Of a stretch of 64,000 nucleotides of DNA, positions 2,990 to 36,130 are shown piece after piece; positions within the stretch are counted from its first letter, which is position 1, and every line of letters begins with the position of its first letter. The DNA is from Felis catus (taxonomy: Eukaryota), in the NCBI RefSeq assembly GCF_018350175.1, contig NC_058382.1:51214001-51278000 (forward strand), written 5' to 3'. Under the pieces are notes generated by a model. The model ran no database searches. It saw only the letters and a program-made list of their open reading frames with translations, and had not been told where the DNA came from. The position numbers and the translations under genes are program-made.

Positions 2990-4250
2990 TGACCCATTTC
3001 TTCCTCCTCCCAGTCATATTAGCTGATATACAAGGACCAGGAAACAACACCGTGACAAAACAAGGTTTCAGAGTCAATGTCATTAAGGTAAACTCAGTAC
3101 CTCCTTTCTTCTTACCTCCTTTCCTCAAAATAAGCAAGACTATCTGCTCTTGCTGAGAGATTTGGATGGTTTCTGGAGCCTAGCAACTTCTATGTAAACC
3201 TAAGGTCCTAGTCACTCTTTCCCTCCCATTGCAGGTACTCAAGGCTCCCAGAGGCATCCCAACAATCCACGAGATCTACTCACCGATCAGTTGGAAAGAC
3301 TGTAGTTATAGGCTGAGGACCACTCAACAATCACTATTACTTATCGCAGGTGAGCATCCCTGTCCACATACAGCCCCTCAACCTTGCTACCTCCTCCTAA
3401 AAGGACCACCTGACTTCTGCAACTAACCCCACCAAGGACCAAGGGCCCCATTATCATGATCTGACAGACTCTTCCTGGGGCAATGCTGGACCCTCATTCA
3501 TGGCTGACTCTGTACCAGCCTCAGGGGTTCTAGACCCTCTGGTCTGACTTCCCAGGGGATATGCATGCATGGTATACTAACTCAGGCCATGCTCCCCCAT
3601 CACTGCAGGCTATCTGAGGGGGGGCACATTGCGCTTCACAAGATGCCATCTGGTCTATTTCTGGTACCGGCTCTCCAGAGAGCAGAGGCTAGGTTTTGAG
3701 GCAGCATACAGAACAGGATGCAAATGTCAAGTGAGTATGGTGATTTTTCTCTGCAGCCCAGGCACTGCTCTTGTCCCATGTCCTTGTTCCCAGATCTTCC
3801 TCCCTGCTGTCTCCCTCTGGATGACCCTTGCTCTTTCACCTTCCTTCCATTCCCTGACCTCTTCCCACTGTTTCCTTTCTGTCCTTTCCCTCCTCACTGC
3901 TCCCTTTAGCCTCTCCTTGTTGACAGACCCTTGTTGCCCTTGTCGGTCCAGGATGGAGTGTATGAACAGGAAGTGGGCAGTTCTGTATCTCCCTCCACCC
4001 CTAGGTTCAGCCCTGCCTCCACTGCTGGCATTCCTGCCCTCAACCTGACTTTGGAGAGTGTGTGTGGAAACAAAAAGACTGTAACTACAAGGTATGGGAG
4101 GGAAACCATTCCTTGTTCTCCATGTGTGTGCCCTCCATGAATGGGTACTGTGAATGGACCCGCATCCAGATGAACTATCCGTACCAAACCTCGGCTCCAG
4201 TGACCTCTGTTCACTAGGCCTGGAATCATATAATAGAGTTTAATATTCTG
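2990..4250 (+). pseudogene. Unidentified gene family, copy 1 (inverted); exon A 3235-3349, exon B 3525-3730
   Basis: Exon A VLKAPRGI...LLLIAG has intact AG/GTGAGC; exon B reads GVLDPLV* ... LRFTRCHLVYFW; a pyrimidine tract follows, as in the other copies. Confidence 0.6.
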
Positions 4251-5099
4251 TCTCCTGGTCTGGCTGCTGTTAACAGAACTGAGTTAGTTTTGTACACCTC
4301 CACTGAAGTGTACACTTAAGTTTTGTTTACTTTCTGTAAGTAGTGTATGCATCAATAAAACTTACAAAAACAAATCCCAAGTTGATAAACCACCCTGATG
4401 ACAAATTCCCTTTATCTTCTCTGTTCATCAATTATCTTTTATTTCTTCTTCATCCAGCAACCTCATGCCAGACTCTAATCCTTCTTATTCCACAATTCCT
4501 GACATTTCCTCATCCTCTCAAAGCAAGAGCCCTGGGTCCAAACAGAGGGACAGATCCAGATCCAATCTGACCAAGGTCACACTCCACCTGACACACCCTT
4601 AACCTTCCCCAGATGATTTGCAGAACCATAAATCACAGGAGAAAGGATATTCCTTGTTCCCACAGAATTAAGACTCACTTGCAAATATAAACATTGTTCC
4701 TTGTCATATTAAAATTCTGAAAATAAAAGACTTTTAAACTTTTATAAGAACACAAAAGGCAATATTTTTAGGACTTCAAATCACAAAAGTTCCAAAATAT
4801 ATGAAGGAAAATGTTGATAAATTCCACTACTCTAAAATAAAATATCTTTCCCCAAATAAACCAAAGTACCATAAACACTATAAAAATATAAGATACAGAC
4901 ATAGATTGGAATTGGAAAAGATTTACAGCTTTATGATAAAAATTAGGTCTGAAGAATGTTTTGGGGAATTGGTTGAAGTTTCCCTTTGAACATAATTTAT
5001 GAACTTAAAAATTTCCCAGAGTCCTTCCAAAAAGAGTGTCTTCTCTGTGTTATTAAGTATTTAATTTAATTATGTATTTTATTAATCTAATTTTATTTT

Positions 5100-6240
5100 G
5101 TTAATTATTTTAAATTTTGGGATCATTTTGGATTTACAGAGGAAGGTACCAAGATAGTACAAAGAATTCATACATATTCTTTACCTAGTTTGCTCTAATG
5201 GTAACATCTTATGCAACACTGGTATTTGTTAAAGCTAAGACATTAACATGAGTACAATACTATTAACTAAATGACACTTTATTCAGATTTCTACCACTTT
5301 TCCCTCTTTTTTGTGCCAGAATCTAATCCAGGATACTGAAGAAATTAGTCTGGTCTGTGACAACTTTTTTTTTTTTAATTTCTTGAAGTTTATTTATTTG
5401 TTTTTGAGAGAGAGAGAGACAGAATCCCAAGCAGTCTCTGCGCTGACAGATGGGGGCTCAAACTCATGAACCATGAGATCACGTCCCGAGCCGAAATAAG
5501 AGTCGGACGCTTAAATGACTGAGCCACCCAGGCACCCCTGGTCTGTGACAACTTCTTAATGGAACTTCACTTTCAGTGACCTGGCAGTTTTACAGTGTAC
5601 TGGTGTTCTGGAGACTCCCTCAATTTGGATGTGTCTGATGTATTTTCATGATCAGACTGGGGCTGTCGATTTTCAAGAATAGCACAAAGAGGAAATACTT
5701 ACTCTCATTGCACTGTATCACAAGCACCTAGCCTTGATACTACATCACTGAGAGTGTTAACAATGATCACTTGGTTAGGCTGGGGTCCGCCACGTTTCTC
5801 CACTGGAAAGGCACCGTTTTTCCTTTTTATACTCTTCGCCATGTCCCATTGGTTTTTAGGTGAACAATGGAATTTAGAAAATTGTATCTGGACACGGGTT
5901 CGTCATTGCCACTGGGGTGTCACTGCTTCCAGGCCTTCTCAGTAGACAGAACTAGGAAACATATGTATGCATATGAATTTAAGTATATCCACATGGTTAT
6001 AACTATGACCCTTTCTCTCAATATATATTAAAATAAACCTGAGTTTCATACTAATGCCAACTACAGAATAATATAGGGCTCATTATAGCTCTCACCTATT
6101 GATTATTTGTACCTTTTTTTCTGACAATAGGAAACTTGACTTTTATTTTATTATTTGTTCGAACCTAGTATAAATGTAAAGTAGTTTCAGCATGTACCCC
6201 TGTAAAGTAAATTTACCAATATAGTACCAGGTTTATGTAG
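5100..6240 (-). mobile_element. Ancient L1M 3' fragment with a nested Can-SINE (5367-5538, TSD tggtctgtgacaactt)
   Basis: L1M 3' UTR-like sequence; 16-bp TSD at 5351 and 5539. Confidence 0.75.
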
Positions 6241-6869
6241 TTTTTAACACAAATCCACTCATTCAAACTCACATGCACAGTTTCTACCCTAAGGCCCCAA
6301 AGGGTCCCAAACACACCTGGGTCCATTCTGGGAAAGGAGGCCCTGGGGGACATGGTGCAGACTCAGAAATCTGGGTGAACTTACATGCATTGCCAGGAAT
6401 AAAGACACCGCCTGATATTTCTACATCTACAATCCCAACCTAATTGATCCCGACCCCCAATTTCAACCTTCCAGTGAGCAGGTCTTCCCATTTAAAACTC
6501 TCAGAGAAACATAGATCTCCTGGCAGAAGGTCAAGAATGTAAGTAGACATGGTTATGGTTAATAGGCACAGAAGAGGCTGCCAAATCCATGCACCAATTG
6601 TCTGCGATCTCACTCTCCCTGGAGTTCAACCAGTGACCTTGGAATCAGAAGAGAATTCTAGAAAAAGAAGACTGTGGAAAAAATGGCACAGACTTAGGGA
6701 ACCAAATGGGAACAGGAAGGTTTTCTGTGCCTATCAGGCCACACACACATGTGCACACATACACACACACACAGTCACAAAAATGTGTATAAATATTTGT
6801 GTATATGTAGGTGACATATATTTCCTAGGAAGCTTTATCTGCTGAGAGACTAAATGAAATGAAATTTAT

Positions 6870-8150
6870 CAGTTGCATAGGGAATAGTTTCTTACATAGG
6901 GCACAAAAACCAGAAAGAAAGTATAAAAGACAAACTGATAAATTGTGCCTCATTAAAATTTAAAACTTTCATTCTTCAAAAGCTGCAATTCCAAAAATAA
7001 GAGAATGAGCCCCAGAGAGGGGAGTTAAATGCAAAACACATATATCTGACAAACATGCTATATCCAGAATATATTAAAAGAAAAAGAACCTCTTGCTACT
7101 CAAAAGGAAAAATAACAATAAAAATGAGCAAAATGTCTGAATAGACACTTCATAAAACATGATACATGGGATGCTCAGTGAGTTAAGTGGCCAACTCTTG
7201 ATTTTGGCTCAGGTCATGATCTCACAGTTAGTGGGTTTGAGCCCTGCATCAGGCTCTGTGCTCACTGCACAGAGCCTGCTTTGGATTCTCTGTCTCCCTC
7301 TTTTTGACACTCTCCTGCCCGTAAGTATGCTCTCTCTCTCTTTCTTTCTCAAAAACTAATAAACATTAAAAAAATATTAAAAACAACATGATACAGGAAT
7401 GGCCAATAGTCCCTAAAAATATTATTGGAAAAAGACAAATAAAGCCTCTATAAGATACAACTTCATATTCACTACAATGGCTAAAATTTTAAAGAATGAC
7501 AATACCAAGTGTTAACAGGGATTTGAAGTAACTGGAATTCTTCCAGTTTGTTCTTGGGATTATAAAATATTGCAACCAACTTGGAAAACATTCAACATTT
7601 TCTTATGAAGTTAATGATACAATTATCATAGGATCAACAGATTACAAACGTATTATTTATACAAACAATGAAAACAGAGAACTTCTTTAAAAATAAGGAG
7701 ACTTGTAATGAATGTATATAATAGCTTTATTCATAATGGCAAAAAATCCTGGGAAATAAACATTTGTCATCAGTAATTGAATGAATAAACAAATTTTGGT
7801 TTATTCATTCAATGTAATAGTAACCACCAAGAAAAGGAACGAACTACCAGTATAGATGACAACGTGGATGCATTTTATAAGCATTGTCCTGAGAGGAAGA
7901 AACCATTTGTAAAAGAGATTGCACTGAACTAGTCTATTTATGTTAAATTCTAGAACATCCAAAATTACATTTATAGAAAATAGGTCAATGTTTGGCCTAA
8001 GGGAATGATTAGCTCCAAACATGTATGAGAGACTTGGAGTATTTATGCTGTTTTTCTGTCTCTTGATTAAGATATTGTTACCTAGTGTATTTATTCACAA
8101 AAATTCTTTAGACTGTGTGATTGAAATGTGCAAGTTGCATTGTGTGTCCA
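6870..8150 (+). mobile_element. Ancient L1M ORF2/3' fragment with a nested Can-SINE (~7168-7380)
   Basis: Degenerate L1 ORF2 3' motifs such as atagctttattcataat. Confidence 0.75.
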
Positions 8151-8319
8151 TTTCCATTACAAATTTGATCACATCGGTAGCCATCATTTTATTACTTCTT
8201 GTGATTCCATGGGTTGGCTAGGTGGAGCCTCCCCTCCATGTGACACCATCTGCAATTAGCTGCTGATGGAAATGGACTGGAACATTCATTTGCCACTGCC
8301 CATGTGTCCATTTATTATT

Positions 8320-8705
8320 ATAGGCTGAATTGTGCTCCCAAAATTTATATGTTGATGTCCTAACCCCCAGTACCTCAGAACGTTACTGTAGTTAGAGAGA
8401 GGGTCATTAAAGGCATAATTAAATAAAAGGAGGTCACTAGGGGTCATTGGGTCACTAATCCAATATGACTGGCATCCTTATAAAAAGAGATTGGGACACA
8501 GACACACACAGAGGAAGGGCCATGTGAAGACACAGGAAAAGACAGCCATGTACAAGCCAGGGAGACAAGCCCCAAAAGAAACCAACACTACTCACAGCTT
8601 GGTCTTGAGCTTCTAGCCTCCATAGTTGTGAGAAAATAAATTTATGTTGTTTAAACCACCCAGTCTGTGGTACTTCACTATGGTAGTCCTAGAAAACTAA
8701 TGCAG
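8320..8705. mobile_element. MLT1 LTR
   Basis: ggctgaattgtg...gagaaaataaattt...gtttaaaccacccagtctgtggta. Confidence 0.85.
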
Positions 8706-8719
8706 GTATTTTTTAACTT

Positions 8720-9900
8720 CAGGTCACTTCTCTTTCCACAGAAACAATATGACTAGGAGCACTTCCTTGTCCTCTCTGAATTGGGAGAATTTTTCCCTCA
8801 TCTCTTTGTTTGAAAGTCACCCTTGAGTTAGCATATCATATGGTAGCCATCCATTTTCACCTTGTTTCAACACACCAAGCCAGCCCATCTATTAACAACT
8901 CTGGGTCTGTCTTTGTCCATCAGGGGGTCAAATTTTGTAAGTAAAGAAAAAGGCTTGGTGCAGGTAGTGATGATAGGGAAAAGAGAAGACAAACAGGTAC
9001 ACCAAATATAAAGAATGGGCAAAACCAGAAAGAAAACAAGGAATAAGTAAAGGCAATGAAGATAGAAGGAGAACAAAAAGAAGAAGAAGAAGAAGAAGAA
9101 GAGGAGGAGGAGGAGGAGGAGGAGGGAGACGGAGCAAGGTACAGCAGGAGAGAGAAAGCAATAGCTCCTGGGCTGAAAGAACATTTGGGGGATCACTCAT
9201 GGTAGAATTAGCTTCTGCCTTGTAGACACCAAGATGCTTTCTTTCTGCTCCTAGTTGTACATTCCCATATTGCATGCTACATCTATTCAATTTTAATTTA
9301 TTATTACTCAAAGCCGCTCATGAAGAAAGAAGTCAAACTTGGAGTGTCAGCACACTGTGTTCCCTCTGTAGTTTGAGTGAATCCAGCCCTGGGGCTTCAG
9401 GATACCCTGGGCAAGGAAGCAGATCAGCCCTGGATGGGCAGTCCTGGGAGCACAATGTCCTAAATTATTAAGGAGAGACAATGACTGTGTTTCTGGTCTG
9501 TTGGCCAAAATTGAGGGTTCATGTTGGCGGTCAGAGAAAACAAAGTGCTGGGGTATATGAGCTCATTCTAAATGGAGTATTTTTTTGCTAGAAAATACTC
9601 ACTCATGAATGTATTTTTTCACCATGGTACTTTTTCTCATCAGATGTGTAGGTATATTGAAATTTCTCCTCAGGAGACTTGATCATCTGTGGAGGAAAGA
9701 GGAAAAATGATGCAGACTCAGGAATATGTGTGGGATGGGAGGCTGCAGTGTTGGTATTTGACCAGGACCTGTCTGACCCCCACATACTGCACATGCTCTC
9801 ACAGCAGGATGGAGAATCCTCTGTTCTCATAGGGAGATGTGTATGGAGAGGAGCTGGTAGGGTGAACCTGGTAATGTGATTTCATAGAGTTGCATTTTCC
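8720..9900 (-). pseudogene. Unidentified gene family, copy 2; exon A 9686-9567, exon B ~9406-9218
   Basis: MIKSPEEKFQYTY...YIHE with frameshift, stops and a lost donor; exon B GYPEAP...KLKLNRC. Confidence 0.6.
9077..9125 (+). repeat. (GAA)n(GGA)n microsatellite
   Basis: Seen directly. Confidence 0.95.
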
Positions 9901-10729
9901 TATTGAAATGGTGAGGCCCTAGAATAAAGCCATCTTGATTGAGAGGTTGGAAAAGAGTATACATGGGCCCTCTCGTGGTTATGTATTCATGTGTCTCCAG
10001 CCAAGTCTCAGAAAGACGAAATGTGTAGCCCCATGGCACCCACATGCCCTATCCCCCACTCAACCACCACAGCAGGGAGAATTCTTACCCCTTACAACCA
10101 AATGGTGAAATACCATAGGCAGGGACTCTGCATTCTTTACAGACTCACCAACTTCTAAGTAAACAATCCAGCGGTATAATAGCGTACAAAAGTAGACTTG
10201 CCCAGGCATGGTCATGATAGCCAGAAGGATACAGAGACCACCAGGAAGTTGGGAGCCAGGTAGGAGCCTGGATACCAATGAAGGATTTAGGAAAAGACTT
10301 TCATACAGTTCTTCTGTCTTTACTGATATAACATGATAATATTACAGAATGTGGATAAATAATATTAGTGGTTTGTGGTAAGTATTCCTTTAACCATCAT
10401 GAGAGACAAATTTTAACTTAATAGTACCTGGACTCAAGGTACTTGGGTTAAAATCCAAATTGCATTAATTTCTGGCTGTAGGACCTCAGGACAGCTCGTT
10501 CAACAACTCACTCCTTAGAATCCTCAACTGTTAAATGTAAATAATTACAGAACTTTTCATACAGGACCACTGCCAACATTAAATGTTAAAAACATGAAAT
10601 GTACTTGAAGTATTACCTGATACCAAGTAAGCACTCAATCAATTGGACTTGTACACTTCATGGTTAGTAGTTATTATTACTCACACTAGCAATAATGAAC
10701 ACTACTTTAATAAATAATTATCTACCCCT

Positions 10730-11522
10730 CTTTTTAATGTTTATTTATTTTCGAGAGAGAGTGTGATTGGGGGAAGAGCAGAGAGAGAGAGGGAGACAGG
10801 GAATCTGAAGCAGGCTCCACACTGTCAGCGCAAAGCCCAGTGTGGGACTCAAACCCACCAACCATGAGATCATGACCTGAGCCAAAATTGGACACTCAAC
10901 TAACTGAGCCACCCAGGCACCCCAAGGATCTACCTCTTTCAAGCCTCACCATACTCATAAAAATATGAATTTATTCTCCTAGTTTTGAACTATCTCTTCA
11001 TTCCTAATTGCAGTATTAATTTCAGTCATATTGTTAATGTAAAAGCAAAAAATGATATCAATGGCACATCACAACTATCCTAGTTTCATATAGATTAAAA
11101 AGGAACAACAAGATTCACCAGGGTAGTATTAATCATGGTTTTAATGTTATGATAATGCAAATTAACAATGTACTGAAATCATCCTCATTTCCTAAAAGGA
11201 AACCAATATTTTCTTGTGACTACTTCTTTGGCCCTGGAAAGGTCCAGCAATATGAAAGAACTCTGTAAGATGTCACAAAATTGCTCAGAGATTAGTCCCT
11301 ATAGTCACTTTCCCCCAATGTCCTTCAAAGTTGGCCATGAATTTTCTTGTACATAGCCATGTCCCTACATCCTCAACTTACAATGACCACTCTCTTTCCG
11401 TTCTCTGCAAATTCCCAAGTTCAGGCAGACAGTTGGCTGGACCTTACTTGCCAATCAGGGGCCTATTGCCATGCCTCTAATATATAACATTTCAATCTTT
11501 TTCAGGCCGTGAGCCCTGATAT

Positions 11523-11561
<39 letters not shown>

Positions 11562-14141: not shown

Positions 14142-14183
<42 letters not shown>

Positions 14184-18929: not shown

Positions 18930-18979
<50 letters not shown>

Positions 18980-21900
18980 TCAAACCTGTCTGGTGGTTTA
19001 TCTGAAGGACTGATGGAGGTTGTTCATCTCTGTTTCATCTAACTTGGAAGTCAGCACAAGGGAGTAGGTCCAAAAGTAGTAACAGTGGCTCAAAACACTA
19101 CCAGGCCTGCTAACACCCCTCAGGTGCCAGAAAACTACCTGGTCTTACAGTTTTTCCCCTTGAATGTGCCTACTTCTGCTGTCTGCCATAGCAATTCTGG
19201 CTGTTCTCCACCAAGGGCTTTCATCATTCCCCACTTCTAGAAATCATCCTAGAAACATGTTCCCACCATCTAATTCAGTTCCTGCCATTTGGGCAAATTG
19301 CCCCAGGTTTAGCCATTGTGATGTCCTTCAGATTGACTCCCGTGTCCTTTTGGTATATCTGTAACTTTTATGTACTTATTTAAAAACTGTACATCCTTCT
19401 AGGGCATGGTTACCAGTGGGGGTGAGGGGTGGAAAAGAAAGGAGGTTGGGTGAAGGGTACAAACTTGAAATGAGATGAGTAAGTTCACAGGATCCAGTGT
19501 ACAACATGGTGATGTTAAGTCCTGTCTCCAAATTTAATCTTCAATACCATTTGGCCACCAATCACAGATTCTTGTCCCATGTCCACCTCCAGGCTCTTGC
19601 GAGTACATGACAGCTAGATTCCACTATTCTATTGAAATATTGCCCCTGTTTTGCTAGCAGGCTCAATATGTCCCTGGCTAGGATGTATTATGACTTTCTC
19701 TCAGTTATTGACTTCATGGGAAGCACTCGCAAGGCTTTGTGTTAGGAAAGAATTTGGTAGGATGTGATAAGAGTGCAGGACCTTAGAGAAACAGTTGATC
19801 CCAGAGCTGAAGAAATGAAAATGCACAGTGGCCCTGGGGCATCATCTCATGCCATAAATCAAAGATTTTTTTTCTAGCTTCATTAAGGTACAATTGATTT
19901 TAACACTATGTATATTTAAGGTATATAATGTAACAATTTGATATATGGTATACATTGTGAAATGATGACCAGAGTCAAGCTAAATTAACAAATCTGTCAC
20001 TTAGTGACTTTGTGTGCATGTGTGTGTGAGTGTGTGTGTGGTGAGAACACCTAATATCTACTCTCTCAGCAAATTTCAAGTATACAATACAGTATTATTA
20101 ACCAAAGTTCATCATGTTGTACACTGGATCTGAAGGACATCACAATGGCTAAAGCTGGGGCAATTTGCCCAAAATATATGTTGGTCGTATAGGCTGACAC
20201 CCCAAAAGAATAAAGTAAGTATCTTTTACCAGATGGTGGTAAATAAAATATTGAATAAAGAAATCAGTGAAGAGAAGGGGCAAATTGTGGAAACCCCTGC
20301 AAAACTTCACTTCCCTCCTCTTTGGGTGCAGGCTGGATTCAGTGACTCACTCACTTCCAAATAACATATGAAAAGGTAAAAGTAGTGACTTTAGAGTGGA
20401 GAAACCTGGAAGACACCTTCTTAACCAGGGGATCAAGGTGAATATAACCAGGGATAACTCGTAATGGTATCACTTGATATGATGCAAGGAGAGGGCAATC
20501 CATTTCTGTGATATATTCATCTAAAAAACCTATAATCCAAATCTAACCAAGAGAAAACATCATACAAACCAACAGTGAGAGACATTTTACAAAATACCTG
20601 ACTTGTATTCTTCAAAATTATCAAGATCATGAAAAACTAGGAAAGAGTGAAAACTGTCACATATTGTAAAAAGCTAAAGAAGGCAAATAGAGACTCCTGG
20701 ATCTGATCAGGGAAGTGAAAAAGGCTATGGGTAGCAAGACTGTGTACATGGGAATAAAGTTAGGTTAGCTCATAGTATTGTACCAATGTTAATTTCATTG
20801 TTTTGACAGGTGCACCAAGGTTGTGTAAGATGTTAACCCTGAAGAAACTAAATGAAAGGTATACAGGAACCCTCCATACTTAACTTCCAGCTTTTCTGTA
20901 AGTCTAAAATTATTCCAAGTTAAAAGTTCATTTATTTATTTATTTTTTCAAAAGATTTTATTTTTAAGTAATCTCCACACCCAACGCAGAGCTCAAACTT
21001 ACAACCCCAAGATCAAGAGGCATATTCTCCACCAACTGAACCATCCAGGTACCCCTAAAAGTTTATTTAAAAAGTCATACTTTAAAAAACAAAATTGTAG
21101 GGGCGCCTGGGTGGTTCACTCGGTTGAGCATCTGACTCTTGATTTCCGCTCAGGTCATGATCCCAGGGTCTTGGGATCCAGCCCCACATCGGGCTCCATG
21201 CTAAGCATGAAACCTTCTTCAGATTCTCTCCCTCTCCTCTCTATCTCTCTAAAATTAAAAAAAAAAAAATACATAAACAAATAGAATCAAAAGTCTCTAA
21301 AAGAATAAACAAAATAAAACAAAGGAGCCCACGGGCAGGTGGAGTTGGCGACCAATGTAAAGGAAACAAAGAAGAATTATTCCAGTTGCCCCGTGAACCC
21401 ATCATTAGCCTGTATTTTACTCATGGTTATGCCCCAAAAGATGAAAATGAACTACAGTTGACTGTACATCCTCCCAGGAGCTTGAAGGCCCTGCCAAAAC
21501 TTTGTGGTGCGTCTCAGCTGAGACTGCCAAAGGGGAGACGCTGTAGAACAGTGACCTAGACTAGGTGCATCTAGTCCACAGATTCCAGGGGCAGATAAGT
21601 TTGTGTCTAAGCTGTTATGGATTTGTTGACCTTCTTAAGTGCACACATGAATACGTTTCCTCAAATTTGAGGAGCTTTCAGCCATTAAATTTTTCTGCCT
21701 CTTTCTTTGTTCTCTTTCTAGAACTAAGGCTATGTGTTTAATGCAATATATTTAATGGCTCCCCAAGGGTATCTTAAGATTTGTTCATTGTACTTCATTC
21801 TTTTATTTTTCTGTCCATCAACTGGATACTCTTAATTAATCTGTCTTCAGTTTTATAGATTCCTCCTACTTCTAGCTGAAACCTGTCATGGAAACTCTCT

Positions 21901-22998: not shown

Positions 22999-23041
<43 letters not shown>
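22802..23041 (+). mobile_element. Can-SINE with (TAAA)n tail
   Basis: SINE consensus. Confidence 0.9.
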
Positions 23042-23139
23042 CATAGCTGCCTCCTCTTTTGTAGATCTGTGGTTTGCCTTGTTACCGCTTCCAACTAAAA
23101 ATCTTCTCCCTAGTAATTCCTGTGGCTTGCCTTCAGTTT

Positions 23140-23570
23140 TAATTTCTTATGATTCAGAAGCACTCATGGGAAAAGAAGTCAGAGCCTGAGGGTGACCTAA
23201 GTGCATGCAGGTATCCACAGAAAAGAACACACTGTGGTCCACAAATAGTCTATTCCAGAGGCTCAGGGGACCCTGGGGCAGGTATAGAATGGGGCATGGT
23301 TGACCAGTCCTGGGAGTGCAGTGTCCTGGGTGCCTCATGAAGAATAATGTGCAGAGAGGGTGACCTCTTAGCCTGGGAAGATGAATGGTCCACTTTGGAG
23401 GAACGCATGCCAAGGGTTAGGGGTAGGAGTCTGGAGAGTGATCAACTCACCCTAGATGAAGAATTTCTTCCGAGATGTCCACTTCTGAATGTAAACACTG
23501 TTGTCCTTAGAAGTCAGATAAATGAACTCAAATACCCCTTCAGTAGCCTTGATCTCCTATAAAAAGATAG
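23140..23570 (-). pseudogene. Unidentified gene family, copy 3 (fragment); exon A 23556-23451, exon B from 23272
   Basis: EIKATEGVFEFIYLTSKDNSVYIQKWTSRKKFFI* between ttttatag and GTGAGT; then GSPEPLE*. Confidence 0.68.
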
Positions 23571-23599
23571 GAATGTGGCATGGGATTGAGGACTATGGG

Positions 23600-24210
23600 A
23601 GTGTTTGGGTCAATTCAAGCTGCTATAATAAAATATCATAGACTGGGGCACTTAAACAACAGACCCAGTTTATTTCTCACAGTTCTGCAGGCTGGGAAGT
23701 CCAAAATCAAAGTGGCCACAGCCTTGGTATCTGGTGAGAATCCACTTCCTGGTGTGCAGACCACTGCCTTCTTGCCATATCCTCAGGTGGTAGAAAGAAA
23801 AAGAAAGTAACTTCTCAGGTCTCTTCTCATAAGGCCATTAATCCCATCATGAGGACCCCCTCTCACAACCTTCTAATGGCCCAATGGCCCTATATCCAAA
23901 TAGCATCACATTAGGGGTTAGGGCTTCAACATATGAATTATGGAGGGCATGATTCAATTCATAGAAGGTAGGCAGAATAATGGCTCCCCCAAAGATGTAC
24001 TTGTGAAGAACTTGTGAATGTGGTACCTTACATAGCAAAAGGGATTTTGCTGATTTGGTTAAATGTAAGGACACTGAGTTGGGCAGAGTGTTCTGGATTA
24101 TCTGGGTGTGCCCAACTTAGTTGTATGAATCTTAAAAAGTAAAGAACCTTTCCTGGTTCTCAGAAAAGTAAATACAACCATAGAAGAATCATTATAGAGA
24201 CGCAGCATAA
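23600..24210. mobile_element. Two adjacent MLT1 LTR fragments
   Basis: cttaaacaacagac...tctcacagttctg...; aggcagaataatggctcccc. Confidence 0.8.
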
Positions 24211-25399: not shown

Positions 25400-26880
25400 C
25401 CACAGACTTTAAGGGAGATTCACAAGATATAAGAACTTTTCTTAACCTAGAGCACTCTGGACCTGGCACTTGTCTACCTCCAGGTTTTATACTTTCGGTG
25501 GCGTAAAGACACAGGCTGTACTCGACATGGAGAAAAACCAGGGTCAGGAGTGCGACTTGCAGATGAAAGAGAACACAAAGTGGTGAAATCAAATGGAATG
25601 AAGAAACACAGAGGAGGTTTGTCAACTTTTTACTTATTATATTATGGTAATGCATAAACTTAACGACAAAATGCATGAACACTGTGTGCGTACAGCTTTG
25701 TGAGTCGTAACAAAATCTACACACCTGTTTCACTAAGACTCAAGTGAAGAAGCAGAAAAAATCAAGTGCCCAAGCACTGATCCAAAATCATGCACTTGGT
25801 GAGTTTTGAGGGTTTGGAGGGAACTGACGGGAAGAAAGAATGGAGTGTTTGGCATGACTGGTGTGCCTGGGAATCTTACAGCGTCGGGGAGCCTGGATGG
25901 CCTGGGAAGTTTGTTGAGCCTACGGAGTAAGACAGCTCATCAGTTGGGTGAGGTGAGTGAAATGCAGGAGGTTCTTGTTTATGTGATTCTAGTCACAGTG
26001 ACCAAGTAGGAAGGGCAGGCCGGAGCTGGTCAAGGTCAAGTGAATGAACTCAATGTTTTCAGGCAAATATGCCCCATGGGACAGGACAGGAATTCAGGAA
26101 AGCAGCAACTCACATTAGTTTTACACTCTGTCTACAGAGTTCAATGTCTAGCAGTGTCAGGTCCCCTCTGCTCTCCGTTACTGGAGTCCACCCCGATTAG
26201 ACAAGAGAAGTGAATGGGGGCATGTGAGAAAAAGAAATGGGGCTGTGGTGAAGCCACAGAGGAGAGAAATGGGGTAGTGAGGTAGAACGGAACAAGGAGA
26301 GAAGGAGTGGAGGACAGAGGTACAGAGAATAGTGATAGGATCAGAAAGCAGAGTGAGAGGCCAGGAAACAAGGTGAAGGAGCTCGCAACAGTGACATTCG
26401 CTGCAGGTGCAGCCCTGGGGACTGCTCATGAGATAGTTTAATCCTACCTTTAGGAAGCTTTGGTTTTGCTCAGAAAAGGACCTCCCCCCCCAGAACCCCA
26501 TATGACAAATATTAAAGTTCAGTTCTCTGTTACGCAGGCAACTTTGAGGGAAAGCATGATACAACATTAGAGTCTACACAGTGTGTCCAGATACCTCCAT
26601 GAAAGGACATTCCATGGTTCACAGGGATCCATCCCAGAGGCTCAGAATACCCAAGGGTAATGAATCCACAAGCCCAGTGTTCTGGGGGCAGCTCAGAAGG
26701 CAGGACGCCTGACGTGAGGGATTCCGTGTTACCAGACACATGGATGGGAAGCAACCACAGGGATTCGTGAAGGACAAAGCAATTGGCATGAGTCAACTAT
26801 CCCACACGAGGATGGCTCTGCTGGGGAATCCAGCCTCATTGGTGCCCCCACACAGACTCACTGACCTGTGTGTGTTCGTG
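25400..26880 (-). pseudogene. Unidentified gene family, copy 4; partial exon A ~26870-26800, exon B ~26651-26448, 3' region with 6-aa repeats
   Basis: YSEPL, WTHC, RELNFNICHMGFW, donor AAG|GTAGGA; repeats RPSRLP-DAVRFP-GTPVMP. Confidence 0.6.
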
Positions 26881-28169
26881 GAAGTACGTATCGTCAGCTG
26901 ACCTTGCCAACACCACCACTGCCATGACATCAGTACAGTAAGGATGAAACTCAGACAGTAGAGGCTTGTAACAAGTTTCTATGAGGAACGTTGTCAAAGA
27001 GAAAGGAGCTAGACCTCAGACTACCCTAGGGGCGAATCCAGGAAATGTTCGTCCTGATTGTGAATCCACAGGGCAGAACATTTATCACTTCCGTCCCTCG
27101 CAGCTTTCTATTTAAAATAGGAATAATTTTGACTTCCAAGATGGTTATGGGCAATTACATAATTATTAAATTATTAAAACATATAGAGGGCATGGAGCAG
27201 TGCCCAGCACATAATGCATGTGGCTCTAGTGTTATTTTTGTTCATGTGCTTATGCTAATTACTATGATTCTTATATGTGAGGAACAAAATGGCAGCAGTT
27301 GTTGACATTACATTATAAAAAAGGTTACATTTCATTCACATCTCTCAAAAACATGTAGAGTATGGCTTATCTAAACCTGTTTATAGGAGCATCTTCATGT
27401 TTGCAGAAGAACTAATAGCAATAAAAAAAAGAACTAATAGCAATTATATAGGTAAGGTAATTACAATGTCAATGAAAGCATCACATTTATGCTTATTTCA
27501 ACTGGTGATGGTAGAGCACAAGATTATCGTGGTACCAACTATTGCTGTAAAGATAGCATGACGCAAATAAACAGTGAAGGATGGCATCACCACTTTGGTG
27601 AGGAAACAAGGTGCTGTCCTAACAATGACATCTCTGTCACACAGGTGTCACACAGGCCCATGCCCTGGCAGGTGATCTGTGGAGGTCACACGCAGGGCAA
27701 AGCCAATGTCCCAACCCAGCCCTCCTGTCAGGGCTGGGCAGATGCTCAGTGGATGGTCTGCCCCAGCCTGTCCCCTACCCAGCGCACATCCAGGAATAGT
27801 CATGAGATCGCACTGGGGTCAGTGATTGTGTCTCTTCATCCCACCTCTCCCCAACCCCAGGATGGCACATGGTAGCCTCACCCTTGATCAGACCATGCCC
27901 TCTTGTGGGTGAGGAATCTAGATTTAGCCTTAAAATGTTCTATTCGAGGGGACTCTGCCTTCTTCTGAGCCATCTACCCTGCACCAGCAGCCTCCACGTC
28001 TTATCACTACACAGGAGATCAGTCTCCTCACTTCTCTCCTGCGAAAGGAAGTCACAGGCATGTCAGGGAAAAACTACCATATACCTGACACACATTTGGC
28101 CTGGCCCCACCCCTCAGTCCGTGTCCACTTAGGCACACTTAGTGTCTGTTAAGTGACAGACTCTTATTA

Positions 28170-30015
28170 TCAGCTCAGGTCATGATCTCACGATTTCGTG
28201 AGATTTCGTGAATTTGAACCCCATGTTGACCTCTGCACTGGCAGCATGGAGCCTGCTTGGGATTCTGTCTCTCCCTCTCTCTCTCTCTCTCTCTTTCTGC
28301 CCTTCTCCCACTCACAATGTCTCTGTCTCTCCCAAAATAAATAAATAAACTTAAAAAAAAAGAGCAGAGATCATGTTTTTCCTAAAATTTTTCCTGTTTA
28401 CTTTTATTTATATTCTTAGCCTGATTTATAGGAAAATTAGATGCAAAATGAAGATAACTGAATCCTCTATGAGCATTTGATGTGCATGACGGCCATTTTC
28501 AGTTCTTGTGTCCTCATCTGCTTTACGTGTCCCTGCTGACATCACCACTACCCAAGTATCAGTATAATATTGACATGACAGAACATGGAAGTATATTCAA
28601 GATCCCTCAAAAATTTTCCTTTAATCACTCTGTGGAAAACAATGTTGAAATGAATAAAACTAACCTCAAACTACCTTAATCAAATCCAAGACATATTTCT
28701 TCCAGGTTATGACGTCTTGGAACAGGACACTTATCTCTGATCCTGAAAATACAGAGTTAAAATTAAAACATGGAAAGCACATGGAGAAGAAGTATGTGGC
28801 ACACATTAATGACTCAATATACGTTGCTGGTTTTGTTTTTGTAAATCTTCAAAATAATTATGTATTAGCTCCTCTTACCGCTGTGACAAGGCACCACAGC
28901 CTTTGCTGTGACAAGGCACCACAGCCTTAGCACAACACAAATCGGGGTGCCTGGGTGGCTTAGTAGGTTGAGTGTCCGACTCTTGATTTTGGCTCAGGTC
29001 ATGATCCCAGGGTTGTGGGATTGAGCCCTGTGTCAAGCTCTGCGCTGAGCGCGGAACCTACTTACGATTCTCTCTCTCTCCCTCTGCCCCTCTCCCCTGC
29101 TCTCTCTACCTAAAATAAAAAATAAAATAAAACAACATGAATGTATTATCTTATAGTTTTGTAGGTCAGAAGTCCAAAACAGGTCTAACCAGGCTAACAC
29201 CAAGGTATTAACGGTGTTGCTTTCCCTCTGGAGATCCTAGGGAAGAATCTGTTTCCTTGTTTTTTGAGGATTCTATAGGACACTGTCATTTCTTGGCTTT
29301 TGGACCTCTTCATCTTCAAAGCAAGGAACATAGCATCTCTCTGATGTCCTTCTTTCATTGTTAAATCTCATTTTGAGTACAGCCAGGATAGGTTCTATTT
29401 TTAGGACTTGTATTTTAAGATTGGCCCAATCTGTGTAGTCCAGAAAACCTCTTCCTTCTATAGATCCTCAAACTTAATCACATGTGCAAAGTCCCTTCTG
29501 CCACGTAAGATGACACTGACTGGATTCAGGAGAAAAAGTAGAAGTTGTTAGGGGTTATTGTTCTTCTTACTTTCATCACGCTGTATTAGGAATAAAATTG
29601 CAGGAGTAATTAACATTGCTTTACAAATGAAATTCTGACTCATTAAAAAAGAAAACCCTCCAAAGTATGAATTGTCTAACCCTGCTTTGCTAGAAAATCT
29701 TTATTTTAAAGCACTATGAATTTAAATTATATAAATAAAAAAGAATGAGGTGGGAAGAGCAATTGAGTGAAGGTATAGATAGAATCTGTCAACATGACGA
29801 GATTTTTTTTTTCAACATTTATTTATTTTGGGGACAGAGAGAGACACAGCATGAATGGGGGAGGGGCAGAGAGAGAGGGAGACACAGATACGGAAACAGG
29901 CTCCAGGCTCTGAGCCATCAGCCCAGAGCCCGACGCGGGGCTCGAACTCACGGACCGCGAGATCGTGACCTGGCTGAAGTCGGACGCTTAACCGACTGTG
30001 CCACCCAGGCGCCCC
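28170..30015. mobile_element. Can-SINE 28170-28358 (+), MLT1 LTR ~28860-29560 with a nested SINE, young feline SINE 29803-30015 (-)
   Basis: Consensus matches. Confidence 0.82.
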
Positions 30016-30149
30016 TTGACATTCCTTGTAATTTATTGATATTTGAACTTCCTTGAGTTTATTGATGCATCCTCCAGAGAAAGAATTGTGTACACATCTA
30101 CTTATTGCAACAAACCACCTCTCATTCACTGCAGCACCCAGACCAAGAG

Positions 30150-31310
30150 AAAGTCATGAAGGTACTTGAAATGCTTCAGTGACTCATGGGCTGCAGGAAG
30201 GACTAAGCACTCCTTGGGAATGTCATGGTCTTAGACCTTCGGATGTGCATGAGATGGCATGATGTGGGAGAACTGGAAGATGCGTTCAGCCTTGACACCA
30301 GGAGGTGCAAGTGCTGGTCTCTTCCAGGTGTAGGGGGCACAGCAAGCCATCAGGAAGGATGGGGTGCACAGCGACATTACATTATGATGTGAACCGAAGT
30401 CATATAAGAGCCATAACAATATGGGGAGTGAAGGAACCTCAGCAAAGTTAACCCCCAACCCTCTTTCCCTGAGTCCGACTCCTTTCTGAATAGAGAAATG
30501 GGGTGAGTCAAGCGCACAGTGGCTGGGCCAACAGCCAACAGAGAAGGAGCATTGTTCAGGTTAAGGGAGTAAGAAACATGGAGAGGAAACAGACAATAAG
30601 GAAGTAAAAACCAGCACTGGGGACTGGCGACAGAAACTGTGGAGAGGTTACTCAAACTAGGGTTACATCCTTCGCCACCTTGTTGCACAACCTTCTGTCT
30701 GGTCTTTGTTGACCTCTCTGCGAGAAATCATATCATACCAGGTCGGGTGTAATTTATTACCACCCAAATCACCATGCAGGAACAGATGCTACAGCATACA
30801 GCAAAAGGGGTCAGTGCAGTGTGTCCAGATGTCCACTGACAGGCACACACTGCTTGGAGGTCGTAGGTGGTCAGTCCCAGAGGCTCAGACGTCCTGATGC
30901 AGGTACCAAAGGAGCCCAGGGCTGCCAGAGCTGTGAATACAGCTACCAGGGGGTGATTCAGTGGGTGAAATGCCTGCAGCGACGGGCACTGTGGTGACTC
31001 GATGCCTGCATGGGACCCAGGATGCAGGAGTCTGTTCTGTGAGATAATATGACAAGAAACCTGGCAGGGGTCAGCACACCCCCAGAGAGGAAATCTCTGT
31101 AGGAAAGCCAAACTCATTGATCTTATAATACAGAATCACTGACTTAGCTAATTTGAAGAGATCGTTTGTCCCTCGGCCCTTCTGATCATCTATGAGGAGA
31201 AAGCGTGTGGGGGAACAGAAAAGAAACTAAAGAACTTTAGTGGAGCAGGCAAAAGAGCCCTGATACTTCACCAGGACTGGTTGGGTGCCGGAGCCCCTCC
31301 TGTGTCCCTC
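30150..31310 (-). pseudogene. Unidentified gene family, copy 5; exon A 31189-31080, exon B from 30893
   Basis: ctcatag|MIRRAEG..., frameshifted YKINEFGFP, SEPL motif, HHNVMSLCTP segment shared with copy 6. Confidence 0.6.
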
Positions 31311-31829
31311 AGCCACAGCGGTCGAGGGGGTGTGGGGGACTTAAGGATGGGAAAGTGTCCTTGGGTTCTATTCCTCTTGTCAAACACCTGCAGCTGCGTT
31401 TTTCACCCATTCTCTGACATCAGTATTTATCTGTATAGTGACACCAGCAGAGTATCACTGTAACATGGCCAAACATGGAATAGAGAGACTTGCAACAACT
31501 TTCTGTTTAATCACCCAGGGTAGAACAATGTAGACATGAATGGAGCCAGGCGTGAAACTACCCTACGACGAAACCTAGGCTATGTTCCTTCCTAGGTGTC
31601 TTTCCTCAGGACAGGACATTCATCCCCTCTGTCCCTCAGATTCTTTAATGCGATAGGAGAATAACTTTGTCATCCAACATCACCGGGAATACAGTGTTAA
31701 GTAACTTAAAGCACACAGAACACACAGGGCTGTGCTGGGTACATGTTAATCCCTCAGTGCCTGTTGCTATTATGATTGTTGTTACGAATTGCTTCATATT
31801 ATTATATGCTAGTTTACTCTTGCTACGTA

Positions 31830-32280
31830 TACACCATAATACCACAACCTTAGCTACACAAATAACACGGATTTAATATCGTACATTTCTGTATGTCAGA
31901 GCCTCAACCAGGCTCAAATCAACATATGAGCAATTCTGCCTTCTCTTCTGGAGGCTCTTCTGGAGTATCTGTGCTTTGTGACATTTCAGAGGCTGACAGC
32001 ATTCCTTAGCTCTTGGCCTCCTGTGTTCATTTTCAAAGCCAACCGTGTAGAATCTCTTTGATTCATTCCATTTCCATAACTGTTTAGGATTCAATTTGGG
32101 AAATGTTCTCCACATTTAAGGACTCATATCATTACACTGAGCCACTGGATAACCCAGGGTAAATCTCAATTCAAATACCTTCACCTAATCATGACTGCAA
32201 AGCCCCATTTACCATGTTAGGCCATATATTCACAGGTTCAAGGGATTGAGATGTGGGCACTTTTAGAGAGCCATTATTTT
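31830..32280. mobile_element. MLT1 LTR in a paralogous context to the ~28860-29560 copy
   Basis: MLT1 motifs; same downstream flank attaggaataaaattgcag. Confidence 0.7.
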
Positions 32281-32377
32281 GAATGCTCAATGTTACTAAT
32301 ACTAATATTTATTAGGAATAAAATTGCAGTGATAAATAATAAGCCTTTACAAATGAGGTTCTACCCCCATTTAAGCT

Positions 32378-32387
32378 GAAAGAAGGA

Positions 32388-32431
<44 letters not shown>

Positions 32432-32540
32432 AGAAAAAAGGAAGGAAGGAAGGAAAAAGAAAAAGAAGAAAGGAGGAAAGGAAGAAAGGAAGGAAGAAGG
32501 AAAGGAAAGAAGGAAGGAGGGAAGAAGAAAGGCAGGAAGA
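32378..32540 (+). repeat. (GAAA)n/(GGAA)n purine-rich microsatellite
   Basis: Seen directly. Confidence 0.95.
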
Positions 32541-33249
32541 ACTGGGGCGCTTTCTGGAGGAGGAGAGCCTATGAACCCAACCAGGCCTTCCCCTCAAGGC
32601 TGGGCAGACACTCAGTGGATGGTCTTCCCCAGGCTCTCAGTGCACCTCCACAAATAGTCATGAGATCGCACACAAGTCAGTAATTGTGTCTGTTCACCCC
32701 ACCTCACCCCAGTGCCGGGATGGCCACACAGCAGGCTCACCCTGGGTCAGGCCATGCTCTATTGTGGAAAAGAAGTCTGGATTTAGTCTTTAAAGGGGGA
32801 CCTCTTCTGCTTCCTTCTGAGCCATCTGCCCTACACTAGCAGTCTTGTATTCCTTGTTTCAAAACAGGAGATCAACCTCCCCAACCCACGACTAGGGCCA
32901 GACATATAGGGGAATGTCACAGGCATGTTGGAAAAAATCATCACAGTTCTGGTACCAACACTTGTCCTGCCCATGCCCTTCGGGCATGTGTATCCTCTGT
33001 GGAGACAGAGTCCTCGACCTTGGACTGGGCCCACCACAAGTCCAGAGTCCTCTTCTTGGAGCCACAGGGATTTTGACATTTGTAACCAAAACTACTATAA
33101 CATTGTATGCTAACTATACTTCAGTCAAGAAAAAAGAGAGAGAGAGAAAAAAAAAAAAAACATTAAGCAGTGTTCATGCCTTTCCTGTTGTGGTCTTAGC
33201 TCGGAGTTGTCTGTATCTCACACTCTCTTTAGGTACACAGTCTTATTGC

Positions 33250-36130
33250 CCCTAGTGGGGAGAGATGGTGTGATTTCAAGCAAAAAGGAACAGACACAGG
33301 GATATGGTTCTTAGATGAAGGAGAGACTGAAGGAGGTTACAAAAAGGAATTGAGTGAAGTTACAGAGGGTGTTTCTGGACAGGTGAGGGCTTTTTTTTTT
33401 TTTTAATCCAGGATCTTGGTAAAGTTTAATGATATACAAACTATATTAAGAAATGTGTTTGTGCGACAGGGGTACATCTGTGTGAGTTTTTTTGTTAAGT
33501 TTATATTCACTCCTATGGGACATGGTACCATCAACGGGTAGCATCTTGCTACCAGAGCAAGAGAAAGTCCATGGAGAACACCTCAAAAACAACAGTACTT
33601 GATGGTGCTAGTAAGGTGGCATGGTTTGGAAAGGATGTTGACATCCGTAGTCTGGTAGAATTGTGGGAACTAGCATGTTTGCTGGGGAGGGTTGCTTGTT
33701 TGGAGAGAATGGTGGCTCTGAGTAATTTGTCAGTTCATATTTTGGGAAAGTTTGGATATGTTGATTTAAGGAAGGCAGGAAATTGAAAGTGACTGTGGGT
33801 TTGAGGATTTTGATGGACTTGGAGATTTGGCACTGGGGACATGTGGAATTAGGGGGACGGGCTTTTGAATAAATTCGCCATTTGGGGCTTGCAAAATTTG
33901 GTGGATTGGTTCAGGGCTTGATAAACTTGAAGTTATGAGATTGGTGGTTTGGGGGAGATAAGTAGACATGGGGATTTGAGCTTCATGGAAAATTTGGGAC
34001 TTGAGGAGCTTGAAAAATTTGGAAATATTGAGGCCTTGAGGGAGGACAAAGGTTTGGAGAGTTTGAGGGGTTTGAGCACGTGGGTATATTCCGGCAGTAT
34101 GGTGTGTTTAGGAAGTTTGCAGGGTTGGGGAGGCTGAGTGGCATAAGGATATTGGTGGGTTTGGGGCAGTTGATGGGCATGGGGCACTGTTGAGCTTGAG
34201 GAGGTTGATGAGCATGAAACATCGGTGAATTTGGGGAATCTGAGGTTTTGGTGTGTTTGGTTTTAGAGGCTAGAGTTTTTGGAAGATTGCTGATTTGTGG
34301 AAGGTGGCAGCTTCAGGGGTGTGGGTAGATTCATGGATGCTGGGTTGTATGGCATGATTAGGTGCTTTGGACATTTTCTTGGCTTGGAAGAGTGAGAGTT
34401 CTGGGAACACTGGTGGGTGTGGTGAAGGTGGGGTTTGGGAGAGGTTATCAGATTTGGGGAGGAATAGTGTTTGGGGAAGTTTTTGAAATTGGCAACATTG
34501 AATGTTTTATGGAGGTTGATGACTTAAGGTGTGCTTAACGGCTTGGTTAAACGAGATTTGAGTATTTCAGAAAAGTGAAGAAATTGGTTGCCTTGTGCAG
34601 GATGGTAGGCTTGGGAATGGGGTTAGACCTCTGTTGGGTGAAAGAGAGTGGAGTGCAGAAGGCTATGAACTTGTGATTCCATTTACATCGATTAGTTCCA
34701 TAGGGTAGGCTAATCTTGTTCAAGTTTTGCACTTGATGGATGCAGGACAGGGGGTGTTCAATTCAAAACTACGTATCTAGGAAAGCATCCAACCCTTTCC
34801 CCATGGAAGAGTGTGGTAAATGTAGCTAAGATCATCATACCTCTGTTCCTTATTTCTATTCCCAACCCAGTTTGGAGAAGATAATAAGATCAGGGGAATC
34901 AAAGACAAGAAGAGTGGCAAGATAGAGAAAGAAGAGGCAAAGAACTGGGGGCAGGGAGAAAGGGCTGAAGAGACAGAGCAGAGAACAAACAGCAAGACAT
35001 GGCAGGGAACAAAAAGTAGGAGCAGGGAGCAGTGGTACAAATCAGAGAAGAGAGCATGGAACAAGGTGAGCGCGCATAGACAAGAGAGAAGAAGCTGGGA
35101 ACAGAAGAGGGATAGGAAATAGGGAAATGAAAACCATAAATGTTCCTGCACTGCAGGTACAGCTGAGGGAGCCAATCACAGCACAGATACACTACAAGTT
35201 GCCTTGTTTTTGCACATAGTTGTGTTCTTCTTCCACTCCAATTTCCACTGTATATATTCAAATTCAATTTCCCAGCACTCAGGAAGTCTAGAATCGTGGG
35301 AGAGTTATCACAATGTATCCAGAGAGTTACAGGTAGGTTCCTAGTGTGGTATATGCATTGTCGGTTCCAGAGGCTCAAGACAACCTGGGACAAGTTTAGA
35401 AGTAGGAATGGTTGTACAGCCCTGGGAACAATGTGCTAGTGACCTCATGGAAAAAAATAAAAAAATCCTTAGAAAGGCACTCTTTCCAGGACTTGTGGGT
35501 AGAGCCCAGTAAGGAAATGTTTGTGCAGAAGATGAGAGGGCACCTTGAGATTGAGTTTAAGATTGATCAACTCACCCGAAATGCAGAATTTCTCACTGGG
35601 GATGCACACTTTGGATGTAAGCACAATTATTCATTCTCCTTAGCAGCCATATAAATAAACTCAAATACCCTTCGGTTGCCTTAATCCTCTGCAATGAATT
35701 GAAAAGTTTTTGTATGAGCCCAGGATACTTACTATGGTCTCCAAGATTCACTGGACTCCAGAACTTACCCCATCTATTCTTGCCGGAGCTGTTTTTTAAT
35801 GCCTTGTATTTTGGAGGGAATCTGGGTGTGGGAAGAGTTGATTTGTTTACCTGGGGATGTTGATTCAGCCAACATGACAAGGAGCTTGGAATTAAGCACA
35901 CCACGCAGAGAGAAAGGAAGTCGCAATTCAGGGAACCCCTGTCGGGAAGGCAGGGAAGAGTTTACTCTTCAATCTCCTGAAGACAAAGTGATCAGAGATC
36001 AAGTCTATTTCTCCTATGATTCCCCAGTGTAGATGGAGATCAGGAACTCACTCCGCGGTTCCTCAAGGGCTTTGCCCCACCGCTCCAGCCCAGGTTAAGA
36101 ACAAATCCAGTCCAGGCAATCTTTCTAAAC
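33250..36130 (-). pseudogene. Unidentified gene family, copy 6 (most complete); ATG 35875, mini-exons 35875-35851 and 35788-35769, exon A 35688-35576, exon B ~35384-35193, large 3' region ~34870-33250
   Basis: Splices in frame to MLAESTSP-APARIDG-RIKATEG, then frameshifts; GT donors at 36051, 35850, 35768 and 35575. Confidence 0.68.

Follow-up and report, generated by a model that had tools for sequence, protein, structure and literature searches.

The 64-kb window analysed here (Felis catus contig NC_058382.1, positions 51,214,001 to 51,278,000 of the forward strand, in a genome of 2.43 Gb) contains six homologous copies of a multi-exon gene of the tissue inhibitor of metalloproteinases (TIMP) family, PF00965, which are named c1, on the plus strand, and c2-c6, on the minus strand, with all positions counted from the first nucleotide of the window. 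The copy c1 is an intact, working-looking gene rather than a fossil, while c2-c6 are duplicated (non-processed) pseudogenes of a TIMP gene, as follows from their intron-spanning homology and their lesions. The reading that we prefer, with a probability of about 0.88, is that of a tandem TIMP cluster in which c1 is a working-looking fifth TIMP gene and c2-c6 are the non-functional relics of old duplications. An earlier note, made from the letters of the same DNA, had described an exon series recurring at these six places, one on the plus and five on the minus strand, without recognising the protein family, which can nevertheless be identified through PF00965.

The gene c1 (2716-4217) comprises five exons with an open frame of 212 codons, and all four of its introns are of the GT-AG type. 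Exon 1 (2716-2830, the boundary being placed by eye from the splice-site output) encodes the start codon, the signal peptide and the Cys-x-Cys...HPQ N-terminus, terminates at a GTGAGT donor and is 100% identical in tblastn to residues 1-38 of a 212-amino-acid protein of Leopardus geoffroyi (P0001). Exon 2 (3014-3087) lies between an AG acceptor and a GTAAAC donor, and exon 3 (3235-3349, 115 nt), bounded by AG and GT, is the exon A of the earlier note, beginning with VLKAPRGI. Exon 4 (3609-3730) carries the Pfam TIMP match and corresponds to the true part of its exon B, and exon 5 (4005-4217), with 100% identity to P0001 residues 143-212, encodes the C-terminal domain and the TAG stop; an AATAAA polyadenylation signal is located at 4354-4359. 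In total, 4 of the 212 residues differ from P0001, and residues 1-143 are identical to a Felis catus UniProt entry. The statement that stops, frameshifts or lost splice sites affect every copy was, therefore, wrong for c1, and the start of the series at 2990 had missed exon 1. The length of 106-120 nt given for exon A (the true exon 3) holds in all six copies, its position after AG in five of them and not in one, and the reported motifs are present in the translations. The exon B has to be divided: its LNFNxC part belongs to exon 4, where it aligns to ..L(R/N)F(T/N)RC.., equivalent to the '..HITTC..' strand of TIMP-1, whereas its GxxEPL...WxHC part aligns to the last ~130 nt of c1 intron 3 and is not exonic.

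The family assignment is supported by the domain match, the sequence profile, the exon structure and the fold of the N-domain. The c1 open frame 3581-4045 matches the Pfam TIMP profile (E=9.3e-8, 32.5 bits against a cut-off of 23.1, profile positions 93-140 of 183), and the scan of the genome with PF00965 revealed four multi-exon loci read by sequence as TIMP1-4, the c1 locus being the fifth. The frame of exon 5 retrieves proteins named 'metalloproteinase inhibitor 1-like', with the best match in Leopardus geoffroyi (100% over 70 residues). The exons of c1 end after ..SD[VIL], ..IK, ..LIAG and ..CxC[KQ], matching TIMP1, 2 and 4 of the same genome. The profile built from the orthologs scored against solved structures gives 112 bits for TIMP-1 (E=2.3e-31), 90 for TIMP-2 and 61 for N-TIMP-3, with profile position 22 aligned to residue 1 of mature TIMP-1. 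A tree of 48 proteins unites the c1-like sequences in a single clade on a stem of 2.1 changes per site, with a Shimodaira-Hasegawa-like approximate likelihood ratio test (SH-aLRT) value of 100, and TIMP2, 3 and 4 group apart from this clade and TIMP-1 (SH-aLRT 87). The AlphaFold model of c1 has a mean predicted local distance difference test (pLDDT) score of 64, the N-domain blocks (residues 41-110) averaging 75-94; its top matches in a fold search are TIMP-2 and TIMP-1 (E ~1e-12), and against N-TIMP-1 it reaches TMt 0.84 with a root-mean-square deviation of 2.1 over 114 columns. By sequence, c1 appears to be a fifth TIMP lineage, weakly nearest to TIMP-1.

The six copies were recovered, all six of them, by leave-one-out nhmmer searches of the window masked for short interspersed nuclear elements (SINEs), with a five-copy DNA profile of the exon 3-intron 3-exon 4 core: E=6e-6 for c1, 2.4e-34 for c2, 4.8e-54 for c3, 4.2e-25 for c4, 3.4e-26 for c5 and 7.2e-37 for c6; no further copy was found in the masked 64 kb, the next-best match having E=0.66. 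The blastn search of c1 against the window at E 1e-3 returned the self-match only, as the copies are too diverged for BLAST, so that nhmmer was required. In single-sequence nhmmer comparisons, c1 2704-3920 is collinear with c2 10270-9036 (E=1.2e-13), c2 9017-10489 with c1 3939-2504 (E=1.3e-17), c1 3068-3894 with c6 35869-35015 (E=2e-6) and c1 3588-4177 with c4 26558-25969 (E=1.8e-4), while c1 and c3 match with E=3.7e-5; the collinear alignments to c1 run through exons and introns alike. The minus-strand copies match one another with E-values of ~2e-7 to 5e-32 in nine of the ten pairs, the pair c5-c6 being weaker (7e-6). The six places had been given in the earlier note, although their extents were too narrow, the true spans being wider. 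In the 60 kb upstream of the window no extra copy was detected by the DNA profile, single-sequence nhmmer or protein hidden Markov model (HMM), and P0001 searched against the whole genome revealed no copy but c1.

The relics, all on the minus strand, are preserved to different degrees. The pseudogene c2 (8955-10589) includes the 5' flank and exons 1-4: exon 1 (10149-10259) with CTG for ATG and two stops, exon 2 (9861-9944), exon 3 (9567-9686) with two stops and the donor AT, and exon 4 (9227-9316); no exon 5 was found for it. The fragment c3 (23058-23607), truncated by a SINE and a repeat designated X, consists of exon 3 (23451-23556, one stop), intron 3 and exon 4 (23067-23162, two stops). 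The pseudogene c4 (25440-27241) contains exon 1 (26926-27012, CTA for ATG), which abuts exon 3 (26802-26910, one stop) with exon 2 missing, the open exon 4 (26430-26542), which keeps Cys and CxC and has the donor AT, exon 5 (25969-26131) and the 3' flank (25448-25722). In c5 (30456-31783), exon 1 (31439-31549) has CTG for ATG and one stop, exon 3 (31080-31189) two stops, and exon 4 (30662-30772) one stop and a lost acceptor. The pseudogene c6 (33194-35990), which is located head to head with the GC-rich 5' region of a MON1 gene, comprises the end of exon 2 with its donor (35845-35869), exon 3 (35576-35688) with a stop and a frameshift, exon 4 (35180-35287) with Cys replaced by Tyr, and the 3' flank (33199-33444). 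Overall, none of the five relics has an exon 3 free of stops in the homologous frame; exon 4 is interrupted by stops in c3 and c5, and c2, c4 and c6 have it open, its conserved cysteine being left only in c2 and c4. Over the six copies, c1 included, the splice dinucleotides are kept in 5/6 for the exon 3 acceptor, 4/6 for its donor, 4/6 for the exon 4 acceptor and 2/6 for its donor. What the earlier note called a large 3' region is a stretch of 841 nt within c6 (33740-34580), single-copy in the genome, rich in proline and lysine codons in several frames and absent at the matching place in c4.

Relatives of c1 are distributed widely among placental mammals. The full-length search found 35 relatives, 32 of them annotated with PF00965, in felids, dog, meerkat, mustelids, bears, seals, horse, rhinoceros, three bats, deer, cattle, goat, pig and camel, as well as in tree shrew, rabbit, manatee and tamarin (where it is broken after exon 3), with the dolphin added by the exon-5 search; the full-length relatives belong to Laurasiatheria, Euarchontoglires and a sirenian. 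An exhaustive HMMER search gave 483 matches (E <= 0.001), in which the c1-like representatives come first and the ordinary TIMP-1s follow, and a cluster look-up added intact 223-amino-acid proteins of the Old World monkeys Cercocebus, Macaca, Theropithecus and Piliocolobus. The entries of New World monkeys, tamarin and titi (P0031, P0038), are c1-like through exon 3 and then diverge, which hints at a loss of the gene in some primate lineages. No ape, human, mouse or rat occurs among the relatives from the full-length search, the exon-5 search and the cluster look-up, which is a lead only, as the genomes of these species were not themselves searched. The c1-like gene is, thus, already annotated in databases, and it is unstudied in the literature searched: in the portions of full text covered, subscription journals excluded, no description was met beyond a positional label in a genome-wide association study of pig (PMC6610066), which names ENSSSCG00000039747 as a neighbour of CNTNAP4 on SSC6, a position which agrees with the synteny of the c1 locus.

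As to expression, 18 sequencing runs match the c1 stretch 2650-4400; the five RNA-labelled ones among them, of which four are gut metatranscriptomes from the same study and the fifth is a 'mammal metagenome', share 54-96% of the words sampled there, introns included; RNA runs can contain DNA, so that nothing is drawn from these matches, which are a lead on gut or faecal expression and not evidence. Several small runs of the host species share 51-68% of the words of the same stretch, with the same standing of a lead.

Two other explanations concern the nature of the copies themselves. The shared blocks could be pieces of an interspersed repeat rather than copies of a gene, and genuine repeats do separate and adjoin the copies: the repeat X has 5201 first-look candidates across the genome (at ~75% identity), and SINEs are plentiful. 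However, the c3 core has only two first-look candidates in the 2.43 Gb, both within the window, the c1 gene has one, and the c4 5' flank block (27673-28090) occurs at two places of the genome, both in the window, the other being 32566-32883, 5' of c5, at 73% identity, and it belongs to the tandem duplication unit; the blocks are, moreover, collinear with a real gene through its exons and introns. The transposon explanation thereby retains hardly any probability: the genome-wide counts show that the blocks are not an interspersed repeat, the case that the earlier note itself had named as refuting its view, and, together with the collinear alignments, they bear out its local tandem family of a multi-exon gene. 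It may also be asked whether c1 is merely a well-preserved prediction, unexpressed or non-functional and annotated by homology, given that the literature searched describes no product of a c1-like gene, that many of the database models are run-on or intron-retaining (P0013, P0021, P0024, P0026) and that the New World monkey entries P0031 and P0038 are broken after exon 3. Against this stand the open frame, the splice sites and the 14 cysteines kept in 14 of the 14 full-length sequences from three placental superorders; such conservation over that span of time would not be expected without selection, which makes the explanation very improbable.

The other two explanations concern the history of the relics. 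The DNA tree of the copies, (c1,(c2,(c3,c6),(c4,c5))), has support of 91/95 and 96/93 for the two pairs, and the exon-1 relics of c2, c4 and c5 all read L-A-P (CTG, CTA and CTG, respectively) where c1 reads M-D-P. Since the same codon was lost in three of the three exon-1 relics, on two branches of the tree, a single loss of the start in the ancestor of c2-c6 is the simplest explanation. The excess conservation of exons, proposed as a check in the earlier note, is not found in c2-c6, where the exons are no better kept than intron 3: the identities are 0.49 for exon 3, 0.49 for exon 4, 0.415 for the 5' half of intron 3 and 0.555 for its 3' half. Both observations suggest that the relics multiplied when already dead. 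In the preferred reading c2-c6 stem from old tandem duplications of the same gene as c1, probably largely of a copy already without a start codon; this order of death and duplication we infer from the sequences, and an upstream start codon in the relics, unseen here, is possible. It is rather unlikely, though deserving of some weight, that c2-c6 were once a working multi-gene family, each member of which decayed separately in this lineage and some of which may be intact elsewhere. Most of the lesions are, indeed, private to one copy (differing stops, differing lost cysteines), c4 has the open exon 4 with Cys and CxC, c6 retains AG/GT around exons 3 and 4, and the intact c1 shows that the family is maintainable. 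The shared loss of ATG and the unexceptional conservation of the exons speak for the contrary, as do the databases: the 131-amino-acid frame of c4 gave 24 word candidates in the protein database, none at E <= 10 and so no protein resembling it, and none of the 203 fetched TIMP-family proteins matched c2-c6 at E <0.001, the relic matches in the c1-masked window being those of c1 orthologs on c4 exon 4 (best E=0.001). Of intact counterparts of c2-c6 in other mammals, which the earlier note had envisaged, there is no sign among database proteins, a search that unannotated copies would escape; the decay in this lineage that it had proposed applies to c2-c6 and not to c1, which is intact here and annotated in many placentals. 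There is, finally, only a slight chance that the relics persist on account of some non-coding function in a part of their sequence, for example that of an enhancer or RNA, with the 3' half of intron 3 as the candidate. This half is the most conserved part of c2-c6, and the match of the c2-c6 profile to c1 (3494-3737, E=6e-6) falls on the same intronic block; the difference between 0.555 and 0.49 is, however, small and comes from a single alignment at ~50% identity. The best-kept block corresponds to c1 3480-3608, and in c1 it contains a TACTAAC branch-site-like motif.

The age of the cluster, read as old tandem duplications of a TIMP gene, can be estimated only roughly. The flanks of c4 and c5 are 73% identical over 330 nt (Jukes-Cantor distance ~0.33), and at an assumed rate of 2.2e-9 changes per site per year their duplication would be roughly 75 million years old, the split of c1 being earlier; the Kimura two-parameter distances, taken from a forced alignment of the core, are saturated (0.65-1.16) and do not enter this estimate. 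A run-on gene model of the giant panda (P0024) matches 10512-10583 (+) beside c2 in 17 of 24 residues (71%, E=3.7e-5) and also 8925-9083 (+) with 40% identity over 53 amino acids (E=0.031), so that the neighbourhood of c2 seems conserved in bears, which may hint that the region is older than the carnivore radiation.

The predicted protein of c1 combines an invariant scaffold with a variable ridge. The alignment of the 14 full-length orthologs has 51 invariant columns, among them those of all 14 cysteines of the mature chain as well as K25 and H28-P29-Q30, which together with C22 and C24 are found in 14/14. Twelve of these cysteines align with cysteines of TIMP-1, while C149 and C168 are without counterpart, and an extra, seventh disulfide is our guess. 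By the alignment with mature TIMP-1, the signal peptide would be cleaved before Cys22, giving a free N-terminal cysteine. In ranks and counts which ignore the relatedness of the sequences, position 23 (mature residue 2, between C22 and C24) has the highest entropy of 174 positions (3.0 bits versus a mean of 1.0), with nine residue types in 18 sequences, and positions 84 and 82, both just before the invariant Cys86, rank second and sixth. These positions 23, 84 and 82 align to Thr2, Ser68 and Met66 of TIMP-1, residues of the ridge that is reported to enter the protease cleft in the MMP-3/TIMP-1 structure (1UEA). By homology with TIMP-1, the c1 product would be a secreted two-domain protein of the TIMP fold, in which the cut before Cys22 would expose the free amino and carbonyl groups of this cysteine; these groups could then chelate a metalloproteinase's catalytic zinc, and the adjacent ridge, formed by mature residue 2 and the residues just before Cys86, could fill the substrate cleft. 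As the ridge positions are the most variable ones, the target probably differs between the lineages and may be other than a classical matrix metalloproteinase (MMP).

Several points weigh against the preferred reading and the function built upon it. Taken by itself, the likeness of c2-c6 to TIMP at the protein level is weak: with the protein HMM of the orthologs the best non-c1 match among 3140 frames is exon 4 of c4, at E=0.27, and over the read-through frames of c2-c6 only exon 4 of c4 and of c2 give a signal, the rest being noise on both strands, so that the relic assignment rests on the DNA homology to c1. The adjacency of the c1-like clade to the mammalian and frog TIMP-1 has an SH-aLRT of only 13, and the C-terminal domain of c1 is poorly modelled, with pLDDT <50 in residues 143-180. 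The entropies and residue counts of the ridge are uncorrected for relatedness. Mature residue 2, which is Asp in Felis catus c1, lacks the Thr/Ser typical of the classical vertebrate TIMP1-4: of 11 residue types found there among 37 c1-like sequences Ser/Thr occurs in one sequence, versus 86 of the 112 other TIMP-family matches, so that classical MMP inhibition may be weakened or lost in the c1-like proteins.

A more far-reaching proposal is that c1 represents a fifth, functionally distinct placental TIMP with the ridge under diversifying selection, a lineage-tuned inhibitor or ligand engaged in evolutionary conflict, the dead neighbours being left from an old burst of copy number. It is put forward tentatively, with the odds against it; such a conflict might involve gut, reproductive or pathogen metalloproteinases. 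The gene would have been overlooked, perhaps since humans and laboratory mice lack it or have it in a broken form.

The surroundings of the cluster agree with the MON1B-SYCE1L neighbourhood named in the earlier note. A MON1-type gene at 40.2-44.2 kb (+) shows three Fuz/MON1 longin domains (E 9e-19 to 7e-7), and an exon of the SYCE1 family at 56127-56495 (+) scores 25.5 bits, slightly below the Pfam cut-off of 27, which is consistent with SYCE1L, although a single match is no proof. The window is abundant in 200-bp repeats that presumably are carnivore or feline tRNA-derived SINEs. The repeat X, of ~400 bp, is present at 8311-8728 (-), 1836-2241 (+) and 23574-23963 (+), with weaker copies at 49401-49606, 59458-59927, 29133-29529 and 31777-32281; it adjoins c1, c2 and c3 in inconsistent orientations and, therefore, lies outside the duplication unit, being a true transposon beside the TIMP copies. 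The stretch 2352-2575 (+), just upstream of c1, matches 21360-21584 (+), which adjoins no TIMP relic (nhmmer E=7.4e-10), and the two are probably another repeat. Simple repeats are found in the c2 intron-4 region, (GAA)n/(GAG)n at 9058-9125, between c5 and c6, (GAAA)n at 32378-32541, and as (TG)22 at 18931-18974 and (TC)18 at 14144-14180.

The significance of the locus lies mainly in c1. A count of four TIMPs is given by two reviews, of which one refers to mammals and the other to humans (PMC9409782, PMC4860685), versus which a fifth lineage appears intact in carnivores, ungulates, bats, rabbit, tree shrew, manatee and Old World monkeys. Its invariant zinc-binding scaffold with freely varying contact residues may serve as a natural experiment in TIMP specificity, and the gene is a candidate for functions beyond the reach of human and mouse work. 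The dead copies are of lesser interest alone and may place the expansion of the locus before the carnivore radiation. The case of c1 also illustrates that genes with short exons are missed when the track of open reading frames is used alone.

Among the known systems, TIMP-1 (1UEA, 9SOQ) resembles c1, at ~30% identity, in that a signal peptide precedes Cys-x-Cys...HPQ, in the alignment of the 12 cysteines, in the fold of the N-domain and in the division into five coding exons at identical boundaries. Unlike TIMP-1, c1 has two extra invariant cysteines without a partner in the alignment, the c1-like residue 2 is hypervariable where TIMP-1 has Thr/Ser, and the c1-like proteins have an invariant Lys at residue 4 and Ile/Leu/Phe where TIMP1-4 of the same genome have Pro. 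TIMP1 lies within SYN1 on the X chromosome, whereas c1 is autosomal, beside a MON1 gene. TIMP-2, -3 and -4 of the same genome have the Pfam family and the exon plan in common with c1, and the genome scan with PF00965 showed none of them in tandem. Other proteins with the NTR module, such as PCOLCE, meteorin, agrin NtA and complement C345C, are matched weakly by their OB-like NTR fold (E 1e-3 to 0.1), and the membership of c1 in these families is ruled out by 13-18% identity, the lack of a Cys-x-Cys N-terminus and the other domain context. Tandem families evolving by birth and death, with graveyards of pseudogenes, are a general pattern, which the TIMP cluster follows in having one maintained gene beside dead tandem duplicates and a fast-evolving protein; it departs from this pattern in that all species seen retain just a single lineage and the relics may have gone on multiplying once dead.

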